In this document: piece by piece, positions 555 to 47,559 of the stretch
How the letters are laid out: each line of letters begins with the position of its first letter
How positions within the stretch are numbered: position 1 is the first letter of the stretch
NCBI GenBank assembly: GCA_934155185.1
Contig: CAKPGT010000004.1
Coordinates: 31,910 to 95,909, forward strand
Direction: 5' to 3'
Source: an uncultured Bacilli bacterium
Lineage (GTDB): Bacteria > Bacillota_I > Bacilli_A > RF39 > UBA660
Length of the DNA: 64,000 bases
The notes under the pieces: model-generated
The model's database searches: none
What the model was told of the DNA's origin: nothing
Seen by the model: the letters and a program-made list of their open reading frames with translations, nothing else
Program-made: the position numbers and the translations under genes

Positions 555-589
555 CTAATTATTAGAAAAACTGATAATTAGTTTTTTTT
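555..589 (+). terminator. AT-rich rho-independent terminator after veg (lies inside direct-repeat copy 1)
   Basis: CTAATTAT (555-562) pairs with ATAATTAG (574-581), followed by T8 (582-589). Confidence 0.5.
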
Positions 590-657
590 ATGTTTAAATT
601 ATATTGCCTCTATTTATGAAAACTTATATACCATATTATTTAATATAAATTAAATTT
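557..657. repeat. direct repeat copy 1 (about 101 bp) flanking the rSAM cassette
   Basis: Hand alignment with 2631-2730 gives about 4 mismatches plus one 1-nt indel. Both copies contain aattattagaaaaactgataattag...tttaaattatattgcctct...aaaacttatataccatattatttaatataaattaaattt. Confidence 0.85.
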
Positions 658-667
658 GATTTAGCGT

Positions 668-712
668 TTTTGATAAAAATATGTTGACATTTATCAAAAT
701 AGGATGTATTTT
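668..712 (+). promoter_or_regulatory. sigma-A-type promoter with a perfect 10-bp inverted repeat embracing the -35 (candidate operator)
   Basis: TTGACA (684-689), 17-nt spacer, TATTTT (707-712). TTTTGATAAA (668-677) and TTTATCAAAA (690-699) are exact reverse complements flanking the -35. Confidence 0.45.
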
Positions 713-803
713 AAGTTTAATGAAATTGTATATAGACATAGGTATAAAAATAATTTTGGTAATTAACCTTTTCTATATTTATTGATTTTTTATAAAAAAA
801 TTT

Positions 804-852
804 AAGGCAGTAACTTTTAGAGACAATTAGTCTTTTAGGTTGCTGCCTTTTG
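804..852. terminator. long stem-loop with flanking A-run and T-run in the leader of the rSAM gene (attenuator, bidirectional terminator or sRNA 3-prime end)
   Basis: AAGGCAGTAAC..AGAGAC-AATTA-GTCTTT..GTTGCTGCCTT forms a stem of about 20 bp with a few G-U pairs and a small bulge. It is followed by TTTGTT and preceded by AAAAAAATTT. It ends 50 nt before the ATG at 902. Confidence 0.5.
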
Positions 853-901
853 TTATATAAGAAGAATTATAAAGAGTTTTGAAAAATGTTGGAGGTGTGT
901 C

Positions 902-2449
902 ATGAATTTAGTTTTACCATGTAAAAAATATGAGAAAGGGTATTATGAACTAGTGAATAGTGCCATAAAAAATAAAGATGTATTAGAGATGGGAAATGCA
1001 TATAGAAATGGTGAAAGTTATCAAGATATGTTAAATAGGTTAAAGGATAGACGTAATGGTATAGGAATTCCAAACAGAGATGTTCCCGCTACTGTTTATT
1101 TCATAATAGATAATCATAAAGTTGTTGGAACAATTGATTTAAGACATAAATTAAATGACAATTATTTTTCTAGGCTGGGTCATGTTGCATATTATATAAA
1201 ACCTGAAGAAAGAAAAAAAGGTTATGCAACTAAAGCACTATCATTAGCTATGAAAAAGTATAAAAAGCATAAAATGAAAAATATATTAATTACTTGTTTT
1301 GAAGATAATTATGCGTCAAGAAAAGTTATAGAAAAAAATGGCGGTAAATTTGAGAAAACATTTTATGACGATGTTACCCAAAAATATATTCAAAGATTTT
1401 GGATTAATATTATTAATGATGAAAATGTAATTCCCAATACCGTATGGTTAACAACCAATATGACTTGTAATAACAATTGTAAATGGTGTTATGCAAAAAA
1501 GTATTTAAAAATAAATAGAAATATGTCGTATCAAAATGTTAAAAAGTATGTTTCTTATTTGAAAGGTATTGGTATAAAAAAGATAATCTTAATAGGCGGA
1601 GAACCAAGTATACATCCTGACATTTTAAAGATAATTAGATATATATCTAGAAATAATATCAAAGTGTCTATGGCAACTAATGGTAGAAAATTTGAAGATA
1701 TAGAATTTTGCAAAAGAGCGTATGAAGCAGGTTTATATAGCATTAATATATCAATAAAAGGTTCAAATGAAGAAGAATATATGATAAATACTAATAGTAA
1801 TGGATTTCTTGAAACTATAAAAGGATATGAAAATGCTAGTTATTGTGGAATTAAAACTAGTTTATCCTATGTTTTATGCAATACTGATACAAAAAAGTTT
1901 GATAATTTTTGGAAAGTTGTAAAAGAGCATCATCTAAATAACATTCTTTTTCAACTTTATAAGCCATCAGCGGAAGATGAAAACCAGATTATTTCTATTG
2001 AAGAGCTTTCAATACTATGTAAGTACGTATATGATAAAATTTATAAAGATGAAATTAACTTTGTTTTTGAAATGTCAATACCATTATGCTCTTTAGATAA
2101 GAATATGCTTACTCATATGATACTTAAAAATAGAATAATAACTTGCTGTCATATAACAAAAGGCACTGGTATGGTTTTTGATCCTGATTTTAATATATTA
2201 CCATGCAATCATTTTATGGGACATCCTTTAAATGACACTAATATTGAATTAGATAAATTAATTGAATTTTGGAATTCGGATGATATTAAGCAATTTAGAA
2301 AGATAATAGGAAAGTATCCTTCTGAAATATGTTCTAGATGTAAAAAATGGTATCAATGTGGTGGTGGATGTGCTATAAGGTGGTTATCATCTAATCCGTC
2401 TGAAGCCATAAATGATAAATATGTTTATACAAGGGAGGTGAGAAAATGA
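902..2449 (+). CDS. fusion protein: N-terminal GNAT (COG3981-like) acetyltransferase domain plus radical SAM/SPASM domain peptide-maturase-like enzyme
   Basis: GGAGGTG SD. Residues 1-170 show GNAT hallmarks (RLGHVAYYIKPEERKKGYATKAL; ITCFEDNYASRKVIEKNGGKFE). The radical SAM cluster motif is C189-x3-C193-x2-C196 (TTNMTCNNNCKWCY, nt 1466-1489). The C-terminal SPASM motif is C477-x2-C480-x5-C486-x3-C490 (CSRCKKWYQCGGGC, nt 2330-2371), with additional upstream Cys (CCHITKGTG...LPC). Confidence 0.85.
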   Translation: MNLVLPCKKYEKGYYELVNSAIKNKDVLEMGNAYRNGESYQDMLNRLKDRRNGIGIPNRDVPATVYFIIDNHKVVGTIDLRHKLNDNYFSRLGHVAYYIKPEERKKGYATKALSLAMKKYKKHKMKNILITCFEDNYASRKVIEKNGGKFEKTFYDDVTQKYIQRFWINIINDENVIPNTVWLTTNMTCNNNCKWCYAKKYLKINRNMSYQNVKKYVSYLKGIGIKKIILIGGEPSIHPDILKIIRYISRNNIKVSMATNGRKFEDIEFCKRAYEAGLYSINISIKGSNEEEYMINTNSNGFLETIKGYENASYCGIKTSLSYVLCNTDTKKFDNFWKVVKEHHLNNILFQLYKPSAEDENQIISIEELSILCKYVYDKIYKDEINFVFEMSIPLCSLDKNMLTHMILKNRIITCCHITKGTGMVFDPDFNILPCNHFMGHPLNDTNIELDKLIEFWNSDDIKQFRKIIGKYPSEICSRCKKWYQCGGGCAIRWLSSNPSEAINDKYVYTREVRK

Positions 2450-2595
2450 CAGCGCTAGAATTAGTAAAGAAAAAAATAACCAATTCTGGTCTTGATTCAT
2501 CGGAAACGATTGGATTATCTTCTACATATCAAATAAGTGATCTTGACTGTGACTGTGTAGATGGAGACTACTCCACTGATGGTTATGAATCTTAA
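2446..2595 (+). CDS. 49-aa candidate RiPP precursor peptide (below the 60-aa cutoff of the ORF track)
   Basis: The ATG at 2446 overlaps the TGA of the rSAM gene (ATGA). AAGGGAGGTG SD at 2431-2440. My translation is MTALELVKKKITNSGLDSSETIGLSSTYQISDLDCDCVDGDYSTDGYES. A terminator hairpin follows at 2608-2630. Confidence 0.7.
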   Translation: MTALELVKKKITNSGLDSSETIGLSSTYQISDLDCDCVDGDYSTDGYES

Positions 2596-2607
2596 TGATA
2601 CAAAATT

Positions 2608-2630
2608 AAAACAGGCAAATGTCCTGTTTT
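2608..2630 (+). terminator. rho-independent terminator after the precursor ORF
   Basis: AAAACAGG (2608-2615) pairs with CCTGTTTT (2623-2630) around a 7-nt loop. The terminator-like hairpin of repeat copy 2 follows immediately. Confidence 0.6.
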
Positions 2631-2730
2631 AATTATTAGAAAAACTGATAATTAGTTTTTTAATGTTTAAATTATATTGCCTCTTTTCATAAAAACTTAT
2701 ATACCATATTATTTAATATAAATTAAATTT
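2631..2730. repeat. direct repeat copy 2 (about 100 bp)
   Basis: See copy 1. Same orientation, roughly 95 percent identical by hand alignment. Confidence 0.85.
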
Positions 2731-2807: not shown

Positions 2808-5800
2808 ATGAAGTCTAGAATAAATGTTGAGAAAATTAAAAATAACATTATAATAGGATGGATAAAGTTCAAAAACTTAGTTAAGGAACATAAATATATT
2901 TCATCAGTTTTGGGTTTGTTTTTAATTTCTTGTATAATAGGTTTAGCAGTTTATGCTCAAGAAGATGAATATGCGGGAAAAATTGCAGCTGAAATAAATG
3001 AAATTGAAACTTATACAATAAACGAAAGTGGCGTACTAGGTAAAAGTGAAACAGTATACAGTTTTGATACAATTGTATTTGGTGTAAAATACTACTTAAA
3101 TGGCGCTTTACCAAGCGGTGCTACATTATCAAGGGATGCTATTATTGAAGCTACAGTTGATACCGAAGATGTTGATGTATATTGGTACCATATGGATCAA
3201 GATGATGGCAATTATGAAATAGGAAGTAATAAAGTTAAGGTAGAAATGTATGATAAAGCAGTAGGAACCAATAACAGTTCGTTAAATGAGATAAAATTAT
3301 ATTTAAAAGTTAATAATGTAGAAAATGATAAAGAGATAAGTGTTACTATTAAAGTATATGAATCCACTTCTGAAGAAAAATCAAATAGTAAAAGGAAAAG
3401 TTTTAAAGTTAGTAGTACTCTTCAACCTTTAACAGCTAAAATAAGAAATGGCAGTGCATATAAAAAAGATGAATTTAAAGGAAGATATGTTCCTTATGGT
3501 ATATTACTTGGTTTTGAAGGTGATTCTTTAAAAGGCAAATATTTTTCAAAGACTGAAATAATATTAGAGGCATCGCAGGAATTAAATGGCCAAATTCAAC
3601 AGCTTTCGTTAGATACAACCGATGACTATTATGGCGTTTATGACAAAGATAAAAAATTATTGTCAAATTTTCCAAACGGAAAATATGATGATACAGACAG
3701 CTCGGTTAAGGACTCGGGCAGTGTTTTATTAGAAAAGTTAGAAAGTGAAACCAAATCTAGCCAAATACAAGAAAAAAAATCGAGTCCATTATATTTACTA
3801 GGCGATAAAAGCATAATTTTGGAAGTTGGTGAGGAATATAATGATCCAGGCGTTAGTTTATCAAACAAAGGGACAGCGCTAGGTAATGACAAGTATAAGA
3901 CGATTTTCAAAAATTCTGAAAACAAAGAAATAAGTGATTATAATGCGATGGTTTCAAAGGAAGGCACGTATAAAATAGGCTATGTATATGAGAATGGCCC
4001 ATCTAAAACAACAATATATAGAAATGTTGAAGTTATAGCTAGCAGCGGCGATAAAAGCGTTAGTGTTGATGGCAATACATATTCTCTTAATGGCAACACC
4101 AACATTAACTTAATAAAAGGTGAAAAATACGAAGAACCAGGAATATTAAAAAATGGCAAACGTATTGAAGATATGAATAGTGACAACGGTGTTACTATTG
4201 AAATTACAAAAGATGATAATATCGAAACTGCTGGTGGCAAAATTATATATACAATTATTTCAAAGAATAATTCATCAACTCAGAAGCTTCTAAAAAGAAA
4301 TGTAAATGTTATAGAGAAAGTTGGTGAAGTTGGTGTAGATGAGAAAGTATTAAATGCTTCAACAGTTGAGCAATGTACTGGTGCAGAATGTAAAATTAGT
4401 TATTATAAAGATAATGAAGAAATCAAGGATATTTCGTCTGTTCAATCAGGAACTTATGATGTTGAATATAAGCTATCAAATGAAGATTACGAAGTTGTAA
4501 TTAGAAGTACGATGACGATTGAAAAGAAAGTTCAGTACAAATTAAAGATTGATAATATAAAAACAGATGATATATATTATAAAGATAATAATTTTATAGC
4601 ATTAGGTGCTTACTTTGTTAATGTAATGTCAGAAAGACCGGAGGGTAATACCAATGATATTCCTGTCTCATTAAAGATAGTTAAGATAGGTAGTACGGAA
4701 GCTGATATTACTTCGGTACCTTCAATTAATCTAAACGTTTCCGAAGGAACAAAAACTAGTACGTTAGATTTTTATACTGGAGATGAAGACAGCATAGATT
4801 TGTTAGACAATGGTAGTTATTTAGCGTACGGAGAAGAGACAATATTAAGATCACAATTTAGCTATTCAAAAGATGGTGATAATACTATAAAAAGTTTATC
4901 AGTCAAAGTTCCTGTAAATACTGGTGATAATCAATTTTCAATGGTAGAATACTCAACAGATTCTGAATCGCCTGCATATGATGTTAATTATAATGTAAAG
5001 GTAGAATATTATGATAAAGACGGAAAAACGGTAAAGTTCAGTGATGAGACATTAGCTTATATTATATATACAGCTGAAGGTGTATCACCGGGAACAAATA
5101 TCGACTTTAGAGTAAGACTTAAGGTCAATAGTATAAACCATGGTAAATCTGTTAAATTATCAGGTGCTACATGTAGTGCAGATGGAAAAAATATCAATGT
5201 TGATATTAAACAAACATTAAATATAACTTCATTTAAAGCTAGAACTACTATTTCAGTGGATGGTAATGAATCTGATATTGAAGTCGATGGTTCTAAAAAG
5301 TCAACATGGACAATATATCCTACAGTGTCAAGACCTGCTTCAGTAATTAATACTCAAGTCGCTGGTACGAACCAACTAGATTATGTTAATATAACTGTGG
5401 AACTTCCAGAAGGAATAAATTATGTATACAATGATGAATATGATAAGCCTACTATAACAGAAAATGGAAGAAAGTTAACTTATAAAATACTAGGCAAAAA
5501 AATTAACGATTGGTTTGAACCTATATATTTTGATACAAATTATGATATTAATATTGAAAATGGTAAAAAATTAACTGTAAAATCTATAATTGATGCTACA
5601 ACTAAGGATGAAACACCTATTACTGACATATCTAGTGAAGCTCTAAGAACAACTAGTCGAAGCGTTATATTCCAAAATGTCAATAACATAAGATTTTCAC
5701 TTACAACGGATTATAGTGCGGTCTCTAAAAACCAGCCTTTTACTTTTTCTTCAAATGTGTATAATTCACAATCAGAAAATACCAGTACGGTTATAATTCT

Positions 5801-6971
5801 TCCTTATAATGAGGATATTGAAGGTAGTAAAAAGTTTAATGGAACATACTCTTTAGATTTATCAAGTATTTCATCTAATAAAGAAGTGTATTGTACTAAA
5901 GAAAATTCATCAAATATGGTAACCAATTCTGACAGCCTAGCATCCTCTGAAATATGGAATACATGTGATGATTATAGTGGTGTGACAGCAATTAAGATTG
6001 TTGGTTCGGATAATACAATGAAAAATATTATTAAGATTATTCCGGAAAATAATAAATCAGATGATAATTACGAAATCAGAGCTTACTTATATGATAATGG
6101 ATTAAAAAAAGTTTCTGATAAAAAAACAAATGTTAGTGTAATAAGTAAAAAAATAACTGGTATTGTTTGGGAAGATTTTGATGATAATGGTATAATGGAT
6201 ATAGATGAGTCTATGGTTTCTGATGTTATATTAAAATTATATAATGCAGAGACTGACGAATATATTAATCAAACTGTTTCAGATGTAAAAGGACAATACA
6301 CCTTATCGGATTTGGAGCCTGGAAAGTATTATATTAGTGCAGAATTTAATACAGCTAAATATGGATTAACCCAGTATAGGGCTAGCGAAAATAAATCCGA
6401 AACATCGTCATTTAAAACAAGTTCTTCAGATTATATTACAGATGAAATAGAAATTACTAATAATACAAGAACAATTAATAATATAAACTTAGGATTATCA
6501 TTGAAGAAGGTATACAAGCTAAAATTATCTAAGTATGTAAACAAAGTAATTATTACTGATAAACTTGGAATACCTTCAACGAGAGACTTTAATAATGTGA
6601 CACTTGCAAAAGTAGATGTTAAAGATTTTGCTAATGTGAAAATGAAGGTAGTATATGTATTAGAATTAGAAAACATTGGATATTATCCTGGTTATGTTTA
6701 TAGAATAAAAGATTATATTCCAGATGGCATGACATTTAATGCGGAATATGAAGAAAATACGGGCTGGGAGTTAAATGAAGATGGATATCTTGAAAACAAT
6801 ACACTATCAGATGAGTTGATATATGGTGGTCAAAAAAAATATTTAACTATAGCATTTGATGTTACAAGAAAAGAGGCCGGCTCATTTATTAATTATGCTG
6901 AAGTAAATGATGATGATTTGTTTATTTTAAGTAGTGAAACAGGCGAAGATGGAGATGATAGTAATGAATAA
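2808..6971 (+). CDS. 1387-aa secreted or cell-surface multidomain protein (Ig-like DUF5011-type repeats, SdrD-B/Cna-B-like domain, DUF11-like C-terminal domain); no C-terminal anchor seen
   Basis: GGAGGG SD. N-terminal hydrophobic segment YISSVLGLFLISCIIGLAVYA. GEEYNDPGVSL and GEKYEEPGILK resemble DUF5011 Ig-like repeats. ITGIVWEDFDDNGIMDIDE...VSDVKGQYTLSDLEPGKYYISAEF resembles the SD-repeat B/Cna-B fold. VVYVLELENIGYYPGYVYRIKDYIPDGMTF...NYAEV resembles DUF11. It ends in an acidic tail with no LPXTG or TM segment. Confidence 0.8.
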   Translation: MKSRINVEKIKNNIIIGWIKFKNLVKEHKYISSVLGLFLISCIIGLAVYAQEDEYAGKIAAEINEIETYTINESGVLGKSETVYSFDTIVFGVKYYLNGALPSGATLSRDAIIEATVDTEDVDVYWYHMDQDDGNYEIGSNKVKVEMYDKAVGTNNSSLNEIKLYLKVNNVENDKEISVTIKVYESTSEEKSNSKRKSFKVSSTLQPLTAKIRNGSAYKKDEFKGRYVPYGILLGFEGDSLKGKYFSKTEIILEASQELNGQIQQLSLDTTDDYYGVYDKDKKLLSNFPNGKYDDTDSSVKDSGSVLLEKLESETKSSQIQEKKSSPLYLLGDKSIILEVGEEYNDPGVSLSNKGTALGNDKYKTIFKNSENKEISDYNAMVSKEGTYKIGYVYENGPSKTTIYRNVEVIASSGDKSVSVDGNTYSLNGNTNINLIKGEKYEEPGILKNGKRIEDMNSDNGVTIEITKDDNIETAGGKIIYTIISKNNSSTQKLLKRNVNVIEKVGEVGVDEKVLNASTVEQCTGAECKISYYKDNEEIKDISSVQSGTYDVEYKLSNEDYEVVIRSTMTIEKKVQYKLKIDNIKTDDIYYKDNNFIALGAYFVNVMSERPEGNTNDIPVSLKIVKIGSTEADITSVPSINLNVSEGTKTSTLDFYTGDEDSIDLLDNGSYLAYGEETILRSQFSYSKDGDNTIKSLSVKVPVNTGDNQFSMVEYSTDSESPAYDVNYNVKVEYYDKDGKTVKFSDETLAYIIYTAEGVSPGTNIDFRVRLKVNSINHGKSVKLSGATCSADGKNINVDIKQTLNITSFKARTTISVDGNESDIEVDGSKKSTWTIYPTVSRPASVINTQVAGTNQLDYVNITVELPEGINYVYNDEYDKPTITENGRKLTYKILGKKINDWFEPIYFDTNYDINIENGKKLTVKSIIDATTKDETPITDISSEALRTTSRSVIFQNVNNIRFSLTTDYSAVSKNQPFTFSSNVYNSQSENTSTVIILPYNEDIEGSKKFNGTYSLDLSSISSNKEVYCTKENSSNMVTNSDSLASSEIWNTCDDYSGVTAIKIVGSDNTMKNIIKIIPENNKSDDNYEIRAYLYDNGLKKVSDKKTNVSVISKKITGIVWEDFDDNGIMDIDESMVSDVILKLYNAETDEYINQTVSDVKGQYTLSDLEPGKYYISAEFNTAKYGLTQYRASENKSETSSFKTSSSDYITDEIEITNNTRTINNINLGLSLKKVYKLKLSKYVNKVIITDKLGIPSTRDFNNVTLAKVDVKDFANVKMKVVYVLELENIGYYPGYVYRIKDYIPDGMTFNAEYEENTGWELNEDGYLENNTLSDELIYGGQKKYLTIAFDVTRKEAGSFINYAEVNDDDLFILSSETGEDGDDSNE

Positions 6972-9153
6972 TAAAGCAAAAAAAATAATTAGTTATATTT
7001 TTATTTCCGTTTTACTATCAATATTGATGATTGATAAGGTCTTTGCTGCAAATTTTACTTCAACGGTTATAGAAGATAAGTCTTTCAATTCAAAAAAGTA
7101 CCCAACGAACTATTCATATGATTATGTTAATGGAACTATAAAAAAGGGTACGAGTTATACAAGGTATATATTAAAACCATGGGCATTTTATGTAACTCAA
7201 GGAAGTACTAAAAGGCAAGTATTTTGTATAGAGCAATATAGAAATGCATACTCTCAAAAAACTTATGAAAAATATAACTGTGAAAAAAATAACAGTAGTT
7301 GTGTTGTGTCAGAAAATAAAAAGAAGGATTTAATTAAACAAGCTATATCGGTCGGATATCATGTGACTTCTGCACCTGATAATAAAAATTTTGACAAGGA
7401 GATTGGGACCCTAAATAAGCTTACAAATGACAAGACATACGAGACAATCGCTCTTCAGGAAATAATATGGGAAATAATTAGAGGTGAAAGAACTTCATTT
7501 ACTTATTATGCACCGGACACTTGTAAGAGCAGTGTTAATGAAAAAAAATGTTTATTTTATTCTAAAATTTACAATAAAGGTAGTGGCACTCCCGAGGGAA
7601 AGCTTTTAACCAAATATAAAAGTATAATTAAAAAAGCTAAATATACATTTGATAAAATACCAAAGAATTTTGGTACTAATAGTAAGCCAGGAAGTGTTCA
7701 ACTTACTTACAATGAAAAGAAAAAGGTTTTTACGGCAGATTTACATGATAGTAATGGAGCATATAATAATTTTAATTTCAATTCAAGTAATAAAAACATA
7801 AAATTATCGGCTTCAGCTGATGGAAAAACTCTTACTATTACTAGTACTATAGCAATAGAAAAGGATACTCCAATTAAGATAACAGCTACAAACATAGTAA
7901 ATGATAAAAGCGACTATATTGAATATCATACAACTCAAAACTCTTTATTTCAAAAGTTTGGTTATGGAACAGCCGAGATACAATATTTTTTGGGTGTATA
8001 TACTCCTAAATATAAAATAGAGATAGTAAAACAAGATCAAAATGGAAATACTTTAGCTGGTGCGGAGTTTAAAATTTGTAATAAGAAAGGGTGCCCTAAA
8101 GGCTCAGTTATAGTTTCAAATCTAAAGACTAATAGTGCTGGTGTTGCTGCATATGATCAAATTGCTAAGCCTGGAACTTACTATGTTAGGGAGACTAAAG
8201 CCCCAACTGGTTATAACTTATACAGTAAAGAAATAAGTGTTACCGTAAATAAGAATGTCAAAATTCCAGTTAAGAATACGCCTAATACTTTTAAATTAAA
8301 AAAGTATATATATAATGAGACTGATAATTCAAATAACTTATTAGATACAAATTGTAACTTAGATACGGGTCCAATATTTGAAATTTATCATAAAAATAAT
8401 GGAAAGTATGAGAAAATATATTTTACTGAAAATAAAATTGGATCATATGATTATTATGGAACAAAAAGTGGTGGAAATACTACTTCTAGATTAACTACTT
8501 GTAAAGGAACGTTTGAGGCTTTCAAGTTTCCGGATTGTAAAGATTATAAGATAGTTGAAATACAGGCTCCAGAAGGAGTAACATTATCAAATTTTTCTGG
8601 TGAAATAAGTAACATATGTAATAAAACCCAAGAAGTTATAAATGGTTTTACTGGCCTTGAATTTCAAAAGAAAAATGATGACGGTGAGCTTTTGGATGGT
8701 GGAACATACATTCTTCAAACAAAAATAAACAATGTTTATACTGATGTACTTTTGAAAAAAACTCGAGATGGTGAGTATAGTTATCAAAAAGACTTAGATG
8801 ATTCTGAAAAAGATGCGACTTATGAATTAAAAACTAATAATGGAAAATTTTTAGTGAAGAATTTGCCACCGGGGGAATACAGAATTGTAGAGGCAGAAGC
8901 ACCAGAAGGCTATGAATTAATTAAAGATAAAGATTCTAAAGCGCTTGTTACAATAACCGATGAAAACAAAGATGGATATTATTTAGTTGAGATGATTAAT
9001 TACAAAGTTAATAAAGATGGTGATAATGCTTTCGCTGAGTTAATAGTCACGATAACAACAGGTAGAAAAGTTCTTAACTATGTATTTATAATTTCTGGAT
9101 TAGCCATTTTATTGGGCGCTGTAATAATTATAAGAAAAAAAATAAAGAAATAA
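6964..9153 (+). CDS. surface adhesin-like protein with signal peptide, possible N-terminal thioester domain, three SpaA/Cna-B-type (prealbumin-fold) repeats and a C-terminal TM plus basic tail
   Basis: I prefer the start at MNNKAKKIISYIFISVLLSILMIDKVFA (signal peptide); the track ORF starts at 6934. Repeats: IEIVKQDQNGNTLAGAEFKI...GTYYVRETKAPTGYNL; FEAFKF..YKIVEIQAPEGVTL; LEFQKKNDDGELLDGGTYIL...GEYRIVEAEAPEGYEL. C-terminus is ...VTITTGRKVLNYVFIISGLAILLGAVIIIRKKIKK. It overlaps the upstream gene by 8 nt. Confidence 0.8.
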   Translation: MNNKAKKIISYIFISVLLSILMIDKVFAANFTSTVIEDKSFNSKKYPTNYSYDYVNGTIKKGTSYTRYILKPWAFYVTQGSTKRQVFCIEQYRNAYSQKTYEKYNCEKNNSSCVVSENKKKDLIKQAISVGYHVTSAPDNKNFDKEIGTLNKLTNDKTYETIALQEIIWEIIRGERTSFTYYAPDTCKSSVNEKKCLFYSKIYNKGSGTPEGKLLTKYKSIIKKAKYTFDKIPKNFGTNSKPGSVQLTYNEKKKVFTADLHDSNGAYNNFNFNSSNKNIKLSASADGKTLTITSTIAIEKDTPIKITATNIVNDKSDYIEYHTTQNSLFQKFGYGTAEIQYFLGVYTPKYKIEIVKQDQNGNTLAGAEFKICNKKGCPKGSVIVSNLKTNSAGVAAYDQIAKPGTYYVRETKAPTGYNLYSKEISVTVNKNVKIPVKNTPNTFKLKKYIYNETDNSNNLLDTNCNLDTGPIFEIYHKNNGKYEKIYFTENKIGSYDYYGTKSGGNTTSRLTTCKGTFEAFKFPDCKDYKIVEIQAPEGVTLSNFSGEISNICNKTQEVINGFTGLEFQKKNDDGELLDGGTYILQTKINNVYTDVLLKKTRDGEYSYQKDLDDSEKDATYELKTNNGKFLVKNLPPGEYRIVEAEAPEGYELIKDKDSKALVTITDENKDGYYLVEMINYKVNKDGDNAFAELIVTITTGRKVLNYVFIISGLAILLGAVIIIRKKIKK

Positions 9154-14149: not shown

Positions 14150-14305
14150 TTATTGCCAAAGTGCAATTAATTATAGGTACCAAAGACAGTAGGAGCTTTA
14201 AATGTAGCGTAACTTATATTCCTACCGAGGACTAAAGCAAATATGTTTTTTAGGGTCTTTATTTGGTATCAAGTAAAGGCCTTTTTAGGTACTTATTAAT
14301 ATAGT
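14150..14305 (+). promoter_or_regulatory. putative rplJ (L10) leader with terminator-like hairpin
   Basis: 198-nt untranslated spacer before rplJ. GGTCTTTA...TAAAGGCC hairpin followed by TTTTTA, just upstream of the AAAGGAGG SD. An L10(L12)4-binding leader is known at this position in Firmicutes. Confidence 0.45.
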
Positions 14306-47485: not shown

Positions 47486-47559
47486 TTATGCAACTGCTAT
47501 AATATAAGGGATTTTATATCTATGACTTATATTTAGTCATGGCGAAAGGAGCTGGAAGT

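Follow-up and report, generated by a model that had tools for sequence, protein, structure and literature searches.

A two-gene cassette of gut Bacilli and Clostridia pairing a GNAT-fused radical SAM/SPASM enzyme with a small Cys/Asp-rich peptide: a candidate RiPP family

In a 64,000-nucleotide stretch (hereafter the window) of contig CAKPGT010000004.1 from an uncultured Bacilli bacterium, a 49-residue open reading frame (ORF) directly follows a gene for a 515-residue protein, in which a GCN5-related N-acetyltransferase (GNAT) domain is fused to a radical S-adenosylmethionine (rSAM) enzyme with a SPASM region. Judging from sequence comparisons, the small ORF very probably encodes a genuine rSAM-modified precursor, and the peptide is almost certainly the substrate of the adjacent enzyme. 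We favour, with reasonable confidence, the reading that both belong to an uncharacterised rSAM family (with GNAT as a further partner) of ribosomally synthesised peptides with post-translational modification (RiPPs), in which the peptide is the precursor and the mechanism is the one proposed below. By its sequence features, this is an unnamed, GNAT-linked rSAM RiPP family of gut anaerobes, whose enzymes are devoid of a RiPP recognition element (RRE), and analogy makes Cys-centred thioether formation its most likely chemistry. The window contains one precursor and one rSAM gene.

An initial annotation, made from the sequence alone, had proposed the peptide, and our translation reproduces it exactly. 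The make-up that it gave for the last 18 residues also holds, with seven Asp/Glu, two Cys (C35 and C37) and two Tyr (Y42 and Y47), and both of the CX3D spacings that it pointed out are present (C35-x3-D39 and C37-x3-D41). In a tail so rich in Asp, two such motifs are by themselves not significant, and the informative part of CX3D is only its conservation across relatives. The description of the ORF as unlisted is true for the 60-residue ORF track but not for public data, where the peptide has already been called: a 96%-identical representative, labelled "unknown [Clostridium sp. CAG:710]", occurs on 786 contigs and the exact allele of the window on three. The ATG of the peptide (2446-2448) overlaps the TGA of the enzyme gene (2447-2449) in an ATGA at 2446-2449. 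The hairpin behind the peptide gene (2604-2634) is likely the intrinsic terminator of a two-gene operon; a consensus terminator scan of the window did not list it. Nei-Gojobori counts with five orthologues gave pN/pS values of 0.19-0.56 for the peptide ORF, and in one example the core had 10 synonymous substitutions at 10.3 sites, which is saturation, and 6 nonsynonymous ones at 43.7 sites. Such synonymous saturation of the core, together with so few amino-acid changes, indicates that the ORF is translated and under selection. Neither the peptide nor ten diverse relatives fell into any NCBIfam or Pfam family, their sole matches being those of low-complexity (DC)n regions to MSCRAMM repeats; likewise, no NCBIfam family, the SCIFF models included, was reached at cutoff by peptide or enzyme.

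Enzyme and peptide are genetically linked. When one genome per species was scanned, 53 loci were obtained, and 47 of these (numbered with the prefix L), with enzymes sharing approximately 27-97% identity, were examined in detail. Their hosts are Clostridium sp. CAG:710 and CAG:594, metagenome-assembled genomes (MAGs) labelled Bacilli, Mollicutes or Tenericutes, many Clostridia and a few Patescibacteria. In 45 of the 47 loci, the enzyme adjoins a small ORF whose leader is homologous and whose core is rich in Cys and Asp, L030 and L037 being those without it; this ORF lies downstream of the enzyme in most of them and upstream in six (L014, L015, L021, L024, L026 and L027). The coupling to an adjacent rSAM gene suggested in the initial annotation is borne out, the peptide being the sole conserved neighbour across the 47 loci. 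The proposed leader-plus-core layout stands as well, given that both parts align across relatives. The leader motif, M-x-A-L-x-x-hydrophobic ... [Y/hydrophobic]-x-[G/S]-[T/S]-x-hydrophobic ... T-x-G-hydrophobic, aligns in all subfamilies, including one whose peptides have a single Cys, and in the family alignment the core begins at hydrophobic-Asp-Cys. When 5.8 billion proteins were searched with a profile of the peptide, 75 clusters at 90% identity were recovered, all of them unnamed or "hypothetical".

We also clustered all ORFs within 3.5 kb of the enzyme in the 47 loci, and genes for proteases, exporters, immunity or regulators were not conserved among them; occasional neighbours were a Peptidase_MA_2-like HExxH protein, an ArsP_2 exporter, TraG and housekeeping genes. 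In the absence of any other conserved neighbour, the functional unit consists of the enzyme and the peptide. Some of the occasional neighbours deserve mention. The HExxH protein, of about 230-260 residues and with a Peptidase_MA_2 match below the Pfam cutoff, is encoded just after the peptide gene in L012, L013 and L031 and upstream in L011; it is a candidate leader peptidase of one subfamily, and no counterpart of it adjoins the cassette of the window. A TraG/VirD4-like coupling protein is found near six loci (L019, L022, L023, L025, L028 and L032), and a 10-TM exporter of the ArsP_2 type near four of them (L019, L022, L028 and L032). The former hints at carriage on a conjugative element, and the latter at a possible metal link.

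As for the core, we compared 114 distinct sequences, 93 with several Cys and 21 with one. Cys makes up 24% of their residues and Asp 27%. An Asp stands immediately before the first Cys in 100 of the 114 cores, and every core (114/114) has a Cys beside Asp or Asn, so that the conservation of Cys and Asp expected by the initial annotation is supported. C-x-C occurs in 90 cores, and C-x-C-x4-C in 66 of the 93 multi-Cys ones; CX3[D/E] is found at the first Cys in 67/93 and at the second Cys in the same number. The commonest unit is D-C-[D/N/H]-C-x-x-x-D-C, and there are subfamilies with DCNC[V/I]DCxxDAxC or with (DC)n runs, as well as three-fold tandem repeats of the DCHCxSDDCxDCY type (L019, L022, L025, L028 and L032). 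D39 is swapped for S, G, P or N in several subfamilies. The single-Cys cores, which end in DCD[P/L/A] and leave no room for CX3D, belong to peptides reading ...GNV[S/A]NYDCDP, one variant of which is present on 163 contigs. Three residues before the Cys, at position -3, D or N is found in 25 of the 43 peptides aligned (D32-L-D-C35 in the window). What is invariant family-wide is hydrophobic-Asp-Cys-[Asp/Asn/His] only. Most subfamilies are devoid of a core Tyr, with Y47 kept in the GNAT-fused subfamily (..YE[S/Y]).

Two extremes of size were observed among the precursors. At one end, L014, L015, L024, L026 and L027 have the order GNAT (Acetyltransf_1), 34-residue NYDCDP peptide, rSAM (e.g., L024, ~700-1079), and this single-Cys peptide is predicted to be the smallest natural substrate in the family. 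At the other end, L044 and L047, from Bacilli MAGs, encode precursors of about 94 residues downstream of the rSAM gene, with (DC)n / CxC repeat cores containing more than 30 Cys; their enzyme is a distant family member with 29% identity.

The peptide of the window departs from its relatives at position 42. All orthologues and almost all population variants have Cys42 (DLDCDCVDGDCSTDGYES) and thus the pattern DCxCxxxDC, a third conserved Cys that the initial annotation had missed. Counted by contigs, the C42 allele is represented by 786 (its representative alone), R42 by seven, the Y42 allele of the window by three, and truncated ...GDCSH alleles, which also do not have Y47, by 28. C35 and C37 were constant in the 17 population alleles that we read. 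Window positions 628-2659 recur at 100% identity in L062, an independent contig of 2,032 bp, which means that Y42 is not a sequencing error. The peptide of the window therefore appears to keep two of the usual three donor Cys, and the R42, Y42 and truncated alleles amount to natural "mutants" in which the third donor Cys or the C-terminal tail is altered. The earlier suggestion of a Tyr crosslink at DGDY rests on Y42, that is, on a rare allele that replaces this conserved Cys.

The enzyme itself looks competent, to the extent that motifs and a structural model may tell. Pfam domains Acetyltransf_3, Radical_SAM, Fer4_12 and SPASM all scored above their cutoffs (Radical_SAM 74 bits; SPASM 25.2 bits, cutoff 21.5). 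The rSAM cluster motif CxxxCxxC is in place, and the eight SPASM Cys are invariant or at least 90% conserved among 90 homologues and would suffice for two auxiliary 4Fe-4S clusters. An AlphaFold (AF2) model built on the 90-sequence alignment has a confident SPASM-type fold (pLDDT 93.4). As for its affiliation, no NCBIfam family reached its cutoff, the best being MoaA, NirJ and GeoRSP with 60-86 bits vs 230-650. Single-sequence searches of the PDB returned weak, generic SPASM/twitch relatives, CteB among them (5wgg, E 4e-6); with the family profile, the order was SuiB, GDGT-MAS, SkfB, MoaA and then CteB (5e-14), the CteB match being limited to the rSAM core and the anaerobic sulfatase-maturating enzyme (anSME) aligning over its full length. 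Foldseek against the PDB listed BlsE, SuiB, MoaA, anSMEcpe, SkfB and PqqE, with anSMEcpe giving the best geometric fit (TM 0.66-0.68, rmsd ~4.2 A), and CteB was absent from the top 50. It is also important that the profile alignments to SuiB, SkfB and CteB begin past their RREs (chain residues 135, 113 and 95, respectively), and that stand-alone homologues of about 335 residues start approximately 10 residues ahead of CxxxCxxC; together these two facts lead us to conclude that the enzyme family has no RRE. Two GNAT-fused homologues of 519 residues and 40% identity (P0042 and P0048) had weak or no Radical_SAM matches in precomputed Pfam data, and their rSAM cores may be divergent or degenerate.

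A recurrent partner that was absent from the initial annotation is the GNAT domain. In the window, it scored 45 bits with Acetyltransf_3 (cutoff 25.4) and 37.6 bits with Acetyltransf_1, its acyl-CoA-binding motif reads R104-K-K-G107-Y-A109 and fits R/Q-x-x-G-x-G/A, and the PDB gave one weak match for it (3fbu). Four arrangements of GNAT are known in the family. A homologous Acetyltransf_3 domain is N-terminally fused in L001-L010 and L034, and apparently also in L040, where it was matched in three separate pieces; it is split into an adjacent ORF in L004; it lies downstream of the rSAM gene in L016 and L030; and in the single-Cys subfamily, a GNAT gene of a different type, Acetyltransf_1, stands just upstream of the peptide. 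Between this GNAT and the fused one, no BLAST similarity was detected, so we treat them as independent recruitments and have set aside a single ancestral GNAT partner for both subfamilies. Linkage that is repeated and rearranged in this way argues for a functional role. Peptides from Acetyltransf_3-GNAT loci mostly have an aromatic C-terminal tail, ..STxxYE[S/Y] or ..STPW (the L040 peptide, ending in CSTID, is an exception), and those without GNAT mostly end in ..C[T/S]NCD or ..CAISD. Neither Lys nor Arg is present in 96 of the 114 cores. In other RiPP pathways, such as those of microviridin and goadsporin, GNAT tailoring enzymes carry out N-terminal acetylation.

Put together, these data suggest the following scenario. 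The peptide ORF would be co-transcribed and translationally coupled with the GNAT-rSAM/SPASM gene, the signals for which are seen in the sequence. The conserved leader of about 30 residues would be bound directly by the RRE-less enzyme, which would then act on the acidic core, at its invariant Asp-Cys-[Asp/Asn/His] unit or units. There, a 5'-deoxyadenosyl radical would take a hydrogen from a side-chain carbon of the Asp or Asn near each Cys, and the Cys sulfur would be joined to that carbon, yielding intramolecular thioether rings by analogy with QhpD, PapB and NxxcB. The common allele would offer three donor Cys (C35, C37 and C42); with C42Y, the window allele could form two thioether links at most. 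The GNAT domain probably acylates the peptide, as its repeated genetic linkage suggests, and functions not linked to the cassette would take care of leader removal and export. A very acidic product and a cassette with neither exporter nor immunity gene make a classical bacteriocin less likely than a signalling, metal-binding or cofactor-like role.

Not all parts of this scenario are equally firm, and several observations weigh against it. Thioether formation is proposed by analogy, and in some register we put it a little short of even; the specific C35-D39 / C37-D41 topology is improbable. The enzyme falls outside the ranthisynthase clade and has no RRE, its best geometric fit is anSME, an oxidiser rather than a cross-linker of Cys, and, with all eight SPASM Cys conserved, a CteB-like open iron site for the substrate thiolate cannot be asserted. 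In single-Cys cores, the acceptors are restricted to the immediate neighbours or the upstream N/Y. The window has no protease or exporter gene linked to the cassette, and its allele, with a conserved Cys missing, could be a degenerate substrate. That the frame is a chance or non-functional one, or that C42Y marks a decaying, pseudogene-like substrate no longer processed, would agree with the rarity of the window allele (three contigs), with its loss of a family-conserved Cys and with the existence of the R42 and truncated alleles. We regard this as quite improbable, as a chance ORF is excluded by conservation and purifying selection, the enzyme gene is intact with all conserved Cys, the peptide retains C35 and C37, and the Y42 allele was found again, at 100% identity, in an independent sample.

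Other chemistries have to be weighed against the same core and enzyme data. A ranthipeptide of the PapB/freyrasin type, with C35 linked to the beta-carbon of D39 and C37 to that of D41 in two interleaved CX3D rings, was the prediction of the initial annotation; both motifs are there, most multi-Cys cores have CX3[D/E] at each of their first two Cys, and PapB, which favours CX3D, forms S-C(beta) links between Cys and Asp both in line and nested (PMC9413430). We nevertheless consider it unlikely. CteB, the ranthisynthase that we compared, is no closer to the enzyme than SuiB, SkfB or anSME, which together with the missing RRE and the lack of any curated family speaks against a PapB-type enzyme. 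Neither can CX3D serve as the unit of the family, since its 21 single-Cys cores end two residues after their Cys, which means that CX3D is not the common reaction, and the feature shared by all is Asp-Cys-[Asp/Asn/His]; furthermore, D39 is replaceable, an Asp at +4 is often expected from the 27% Asp content alone, and the conserved C42 has only a CX2D partner (D45). The main rival, to which we assign a similarly low probability, is an anSME-like or other reaction without cross-linking, for example C(beta)-H abstraction leading to formylglycine or thioaldehyde, or epimerisation or another change of the flanking Asp, with the remaining Cys and Asp serving as metal ligands of an acidic chelator or cofactor-like peptide. 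Like anSME, the enzyme is RRE-less and of about 335 residues, anSMEcpe superposes best and aligns with the family profile over its full length, and the auxiliary clusters of anSME are fully ligated, to which the eight conserved SPASM Cys may be likened. The (DC)n and CxCxxxxC repeat cores of relatives resemble metal-binding, metallothionein-like peptides, four such loci have the ArsP_2-type exporter nearby, and no bacteriocin-type exporter or immunity gene accompanies the cassette. However, none of the cores contains C/S-x-P/A-x-R, the substrate motif of anSME, by E-value the similarity to anSME is no better than that to SuiB or BlsE, and the metal-exporter neighbours are confined to 4 of the 47 loci. 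As for Tyr chemistry of the PQQ/mycofactocin type on DGDY or DGYE, Y47 is kept in the GNAT-fused subfamily, and PqqE and MftC are among the weak matches of the enzyme; yet Y42 is rare, Tyr is not conserved in the family, the 28 contigs with ...GDCSH do without Y47, the enzyme stays far under the cutoffs of the MftC and PqqE models (57 bits vs 265 for the mycofactocin maturase), and no PqqD/MftB-type partner gene is linked. The Tyr-crosslink idea, being highly improbable, was thus rejected.

It is tempting to go one step further, albeit tentatively and at a probability well below that of our favoured reading, and to suppose that the invariant hydrophobic-Asp-Cys-Asp/Asn unit is the site of an undescribed rSAM reaction, performed by an RRE-less SPASM enzyme with a fused acyltransferase; its products, small thio-peptides of high acidity, would then make up a new RiPP class. 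Such a reaction would differ from CX3D ranthionine formation and could link the Cys to an adjacent Asp/Asn or turn it into a Cys-derived warhead or ligand. These peptides, possibly metal-binding or cofactor-like, would be common in human-gut Bacilli and Clostridia and occur in bacteria of the candidate phyla radiation (CPR) as well.

Coordinates of the cassette and its signals are collected in the table.

Features of the cassette in the window (positions counted from the first nucleotide of the window; a dot marks features without strand)
Feature	Position	Strand	Basis or remark
Left copy of ~102-bp direct repeat	556..657	.	~96% identical to 2630-2730
Promoter-like TTGACA-17-TATTTT, inside cassette, upstream of enzyme gene	684..712	+	Consensus scan only
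GNAT + radical-SAM/SPASM fusion gene, 515 aa, presumed maturase	902..2449	+	Pfam domains
GNAT domain (Acetyltransf_3-type), residues ~1-170	902..1411	+	R104-x-x-G107-x-A109 acyl-CoA motif
Radical-SAM cluster motif C189-x3-C193-x2-C196	1466..1489	+	Nearly invariant, 90 homologues
SPASM region, eight conserved Cys: C396, C415, C416, C435, C477, C480, C486, C490	2087..2371	+	
Shine-Dalgarno GGAGG	2434..2438	+	7 nt before peptide ATG; direct reading
Precursor peptide ORF	2446..2595	+	49 aa + stop; translation MTALELVKKKITNSGLDSSETIGLSSTYQISDLDCDCVDGDYSTDGYES
Leader, residues 1-31	2446..2538	+	Family alignment; leader/core boundary approximate
Core, residues 32-49, DLDCDCVDGDYSTDGYES	2539..2592	+	Family unit D34-C35-x-C37-x3-D41-[C42]
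Codon 42, TAC (Tyr)	2569..2571	+	Cys in nearly all relatives (TGT in L001)
Hairpin, then U-rich run	2604..2634	+	dG -12.6 kcal/mol, z -4.46 vs shuffles
Right copy of ~102-bp direct repeat	2630..2730	.	Also beside CAG:710 cassette (L001 5729-5827)

The direct repeat, which has only these two copies in 64 kb, brackets the enzyme and peptide genes. Window positions 667-2728 (2.06 kb) are 97.7% identical to Clostridium sp. CAG:710, and the flanks are unrelated; the promoter-like site falls within this common block. The cassette is flanked by veg and a surface-protein gene in the window and, in CAG:710, by GtrA/glycosyltransferase genes on one side and ABC-2 transporter genes on the other, CAG:710-type contigs having the right-hand repeat copy only. 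The cassette behaves like a portable 2-kb module, and these data suggest that it was taken up or moved in one piece. When metagenomes were scanned with the flanking repeat, further cassette-bearing contigs of the CAG:710 type turned up only and no empty site, and plasmid and phage collections contained no counterpart of the cassette. Directly downstream, there are genes for a 1387-residue surface protein with an SdrD B-like domain (2808-6971) and a 739-residue surface protein that has SpaA-type pilin domains and is membrane-anchored at its C-terminus (6934-9153); neither is tied to the peptide system in other loci. Farther away, Rfam identified a ribosomal protein L10 leader (14162-14296) and an L31-Firmicutes leader (47520-47551), both housekeeping cis-regulators.

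Gut metagenomes are rich in the peptide and its enzyme, with about 1,500 assembly blocks indexed for the nearest allele by itself, and yet every member found is unnamed or "hypothetical". Large surveys of rSAM RiPPs whose starting point is RRE-associated enzymes (PMC10288494) would pass over this RRE-less family. For studies of the reaction, the family provides a natural substrate of very small size with one Cys (...NYDCDP); it also provides a natural GNAT-rSAM maturase fusion and natural alleles that are one donor Cys short. If the Cys-Asp thioether proves true, the enzyme would be an RRE-independent thioether ligase of interest for peptide stapling; if not, the chemistry would be new. In the literature that we searched, the core motif strings gave nothing relevant in full text, and no paper beyond a general review joined GNAT, SPASM and a precursor peptide.

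Finally, we would like to compare the family with known systems. It agrees with radical-SAM/SPASM RiPPs in general, both in the motifs of the maturase and in the adjacent conserved precursor, and it does not match ranthisynthases (clade, RRE), SCIFF, anSME or PQQ/mycofactocin systems. It is established chemistry that rSAM/SPASM enzymes join Cys to Asp/Glu or Asn in thioethers (PMC9413430; PMC8326336): PapB forms Cys-Asp links, preferring CX3D and accepting CX0-6D (PMC9413430), QhpD forms Cys-Asp/Glu links, and NxxcB joins a Cys to Asn(i-3), namely the Cys23 sulfur to the Asn20 C-beta (PMC9413430, PMC8326336). QhpD thus provides a precedent for Cys-Asp links; however, QhpC is a subunit of quinohemoprotein amine dehydrogenase rather than a peptide with leader and core, qhp genes are absent here, and QhpD was not among the best family matches of the enzyme. 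With NxxcA/NxxcB, the single-Cys N-Y-D-C shares the N-x-x-C pattern, and many multi-Cys cores read [D/N]-x-D-C, but only 25 of the 43 aligned peptides have D or N at position -3, and the taxa and operon type differ, NxxcA/NxxcB belonging to Rgg/SHP-regulated streptococcal clusters. The anSMEs are likewise RRE-less SPASM enzymes of similar size, superpose best and act on a peptidyl Cys; unlike them, the present enzyme has a dedicated small leader-bearing precursor and no sulfatase, and it scored 45 bits with the anSME model TIGR03942 (cutoff 349). GNAT tailoring enzymes of other RiPPs are also genetically tied to a precursor and its main maturase, whereas here the GNAT is fused to the rSAM enzyme.

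In its workings, the cassette resembles those of the SCIFF and freyrasin types. Freyrasin PapA/PapB has the same combination of a leader with a Cys/Asp-rich acidic core and an adjacent rSAM/SPASM maturase, and its CX3D spacing recurs in the window peptide and in approximately 70% of the multi-Cys relatives. In contrast to PapB, the enzyme of the window is GNAT-fused, lacks an RRE and does not detectably resemble CteB more than it does other SPASM enzymes, and instead of repeated CX3D, the family unit is DCxCxxxDC or a single DCD, with predicted chemistry. The SCIFF systems (CteA/CteB, Tte1186a) are two-gene cassettes of a Cys-rich peptide and an rSAM/SPASM enzyme without exporter or immunity gene, just as here, and the window family differs from them in its leader and core motifs, in the lack of an RRE and in its GNAT partner. 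The likeness to SCIFF extends to distribution and probable role, since SCIFF systems are widespread in anaerobic Firmicutes and their function is probably not that of an antibiotic (PMC8326336).

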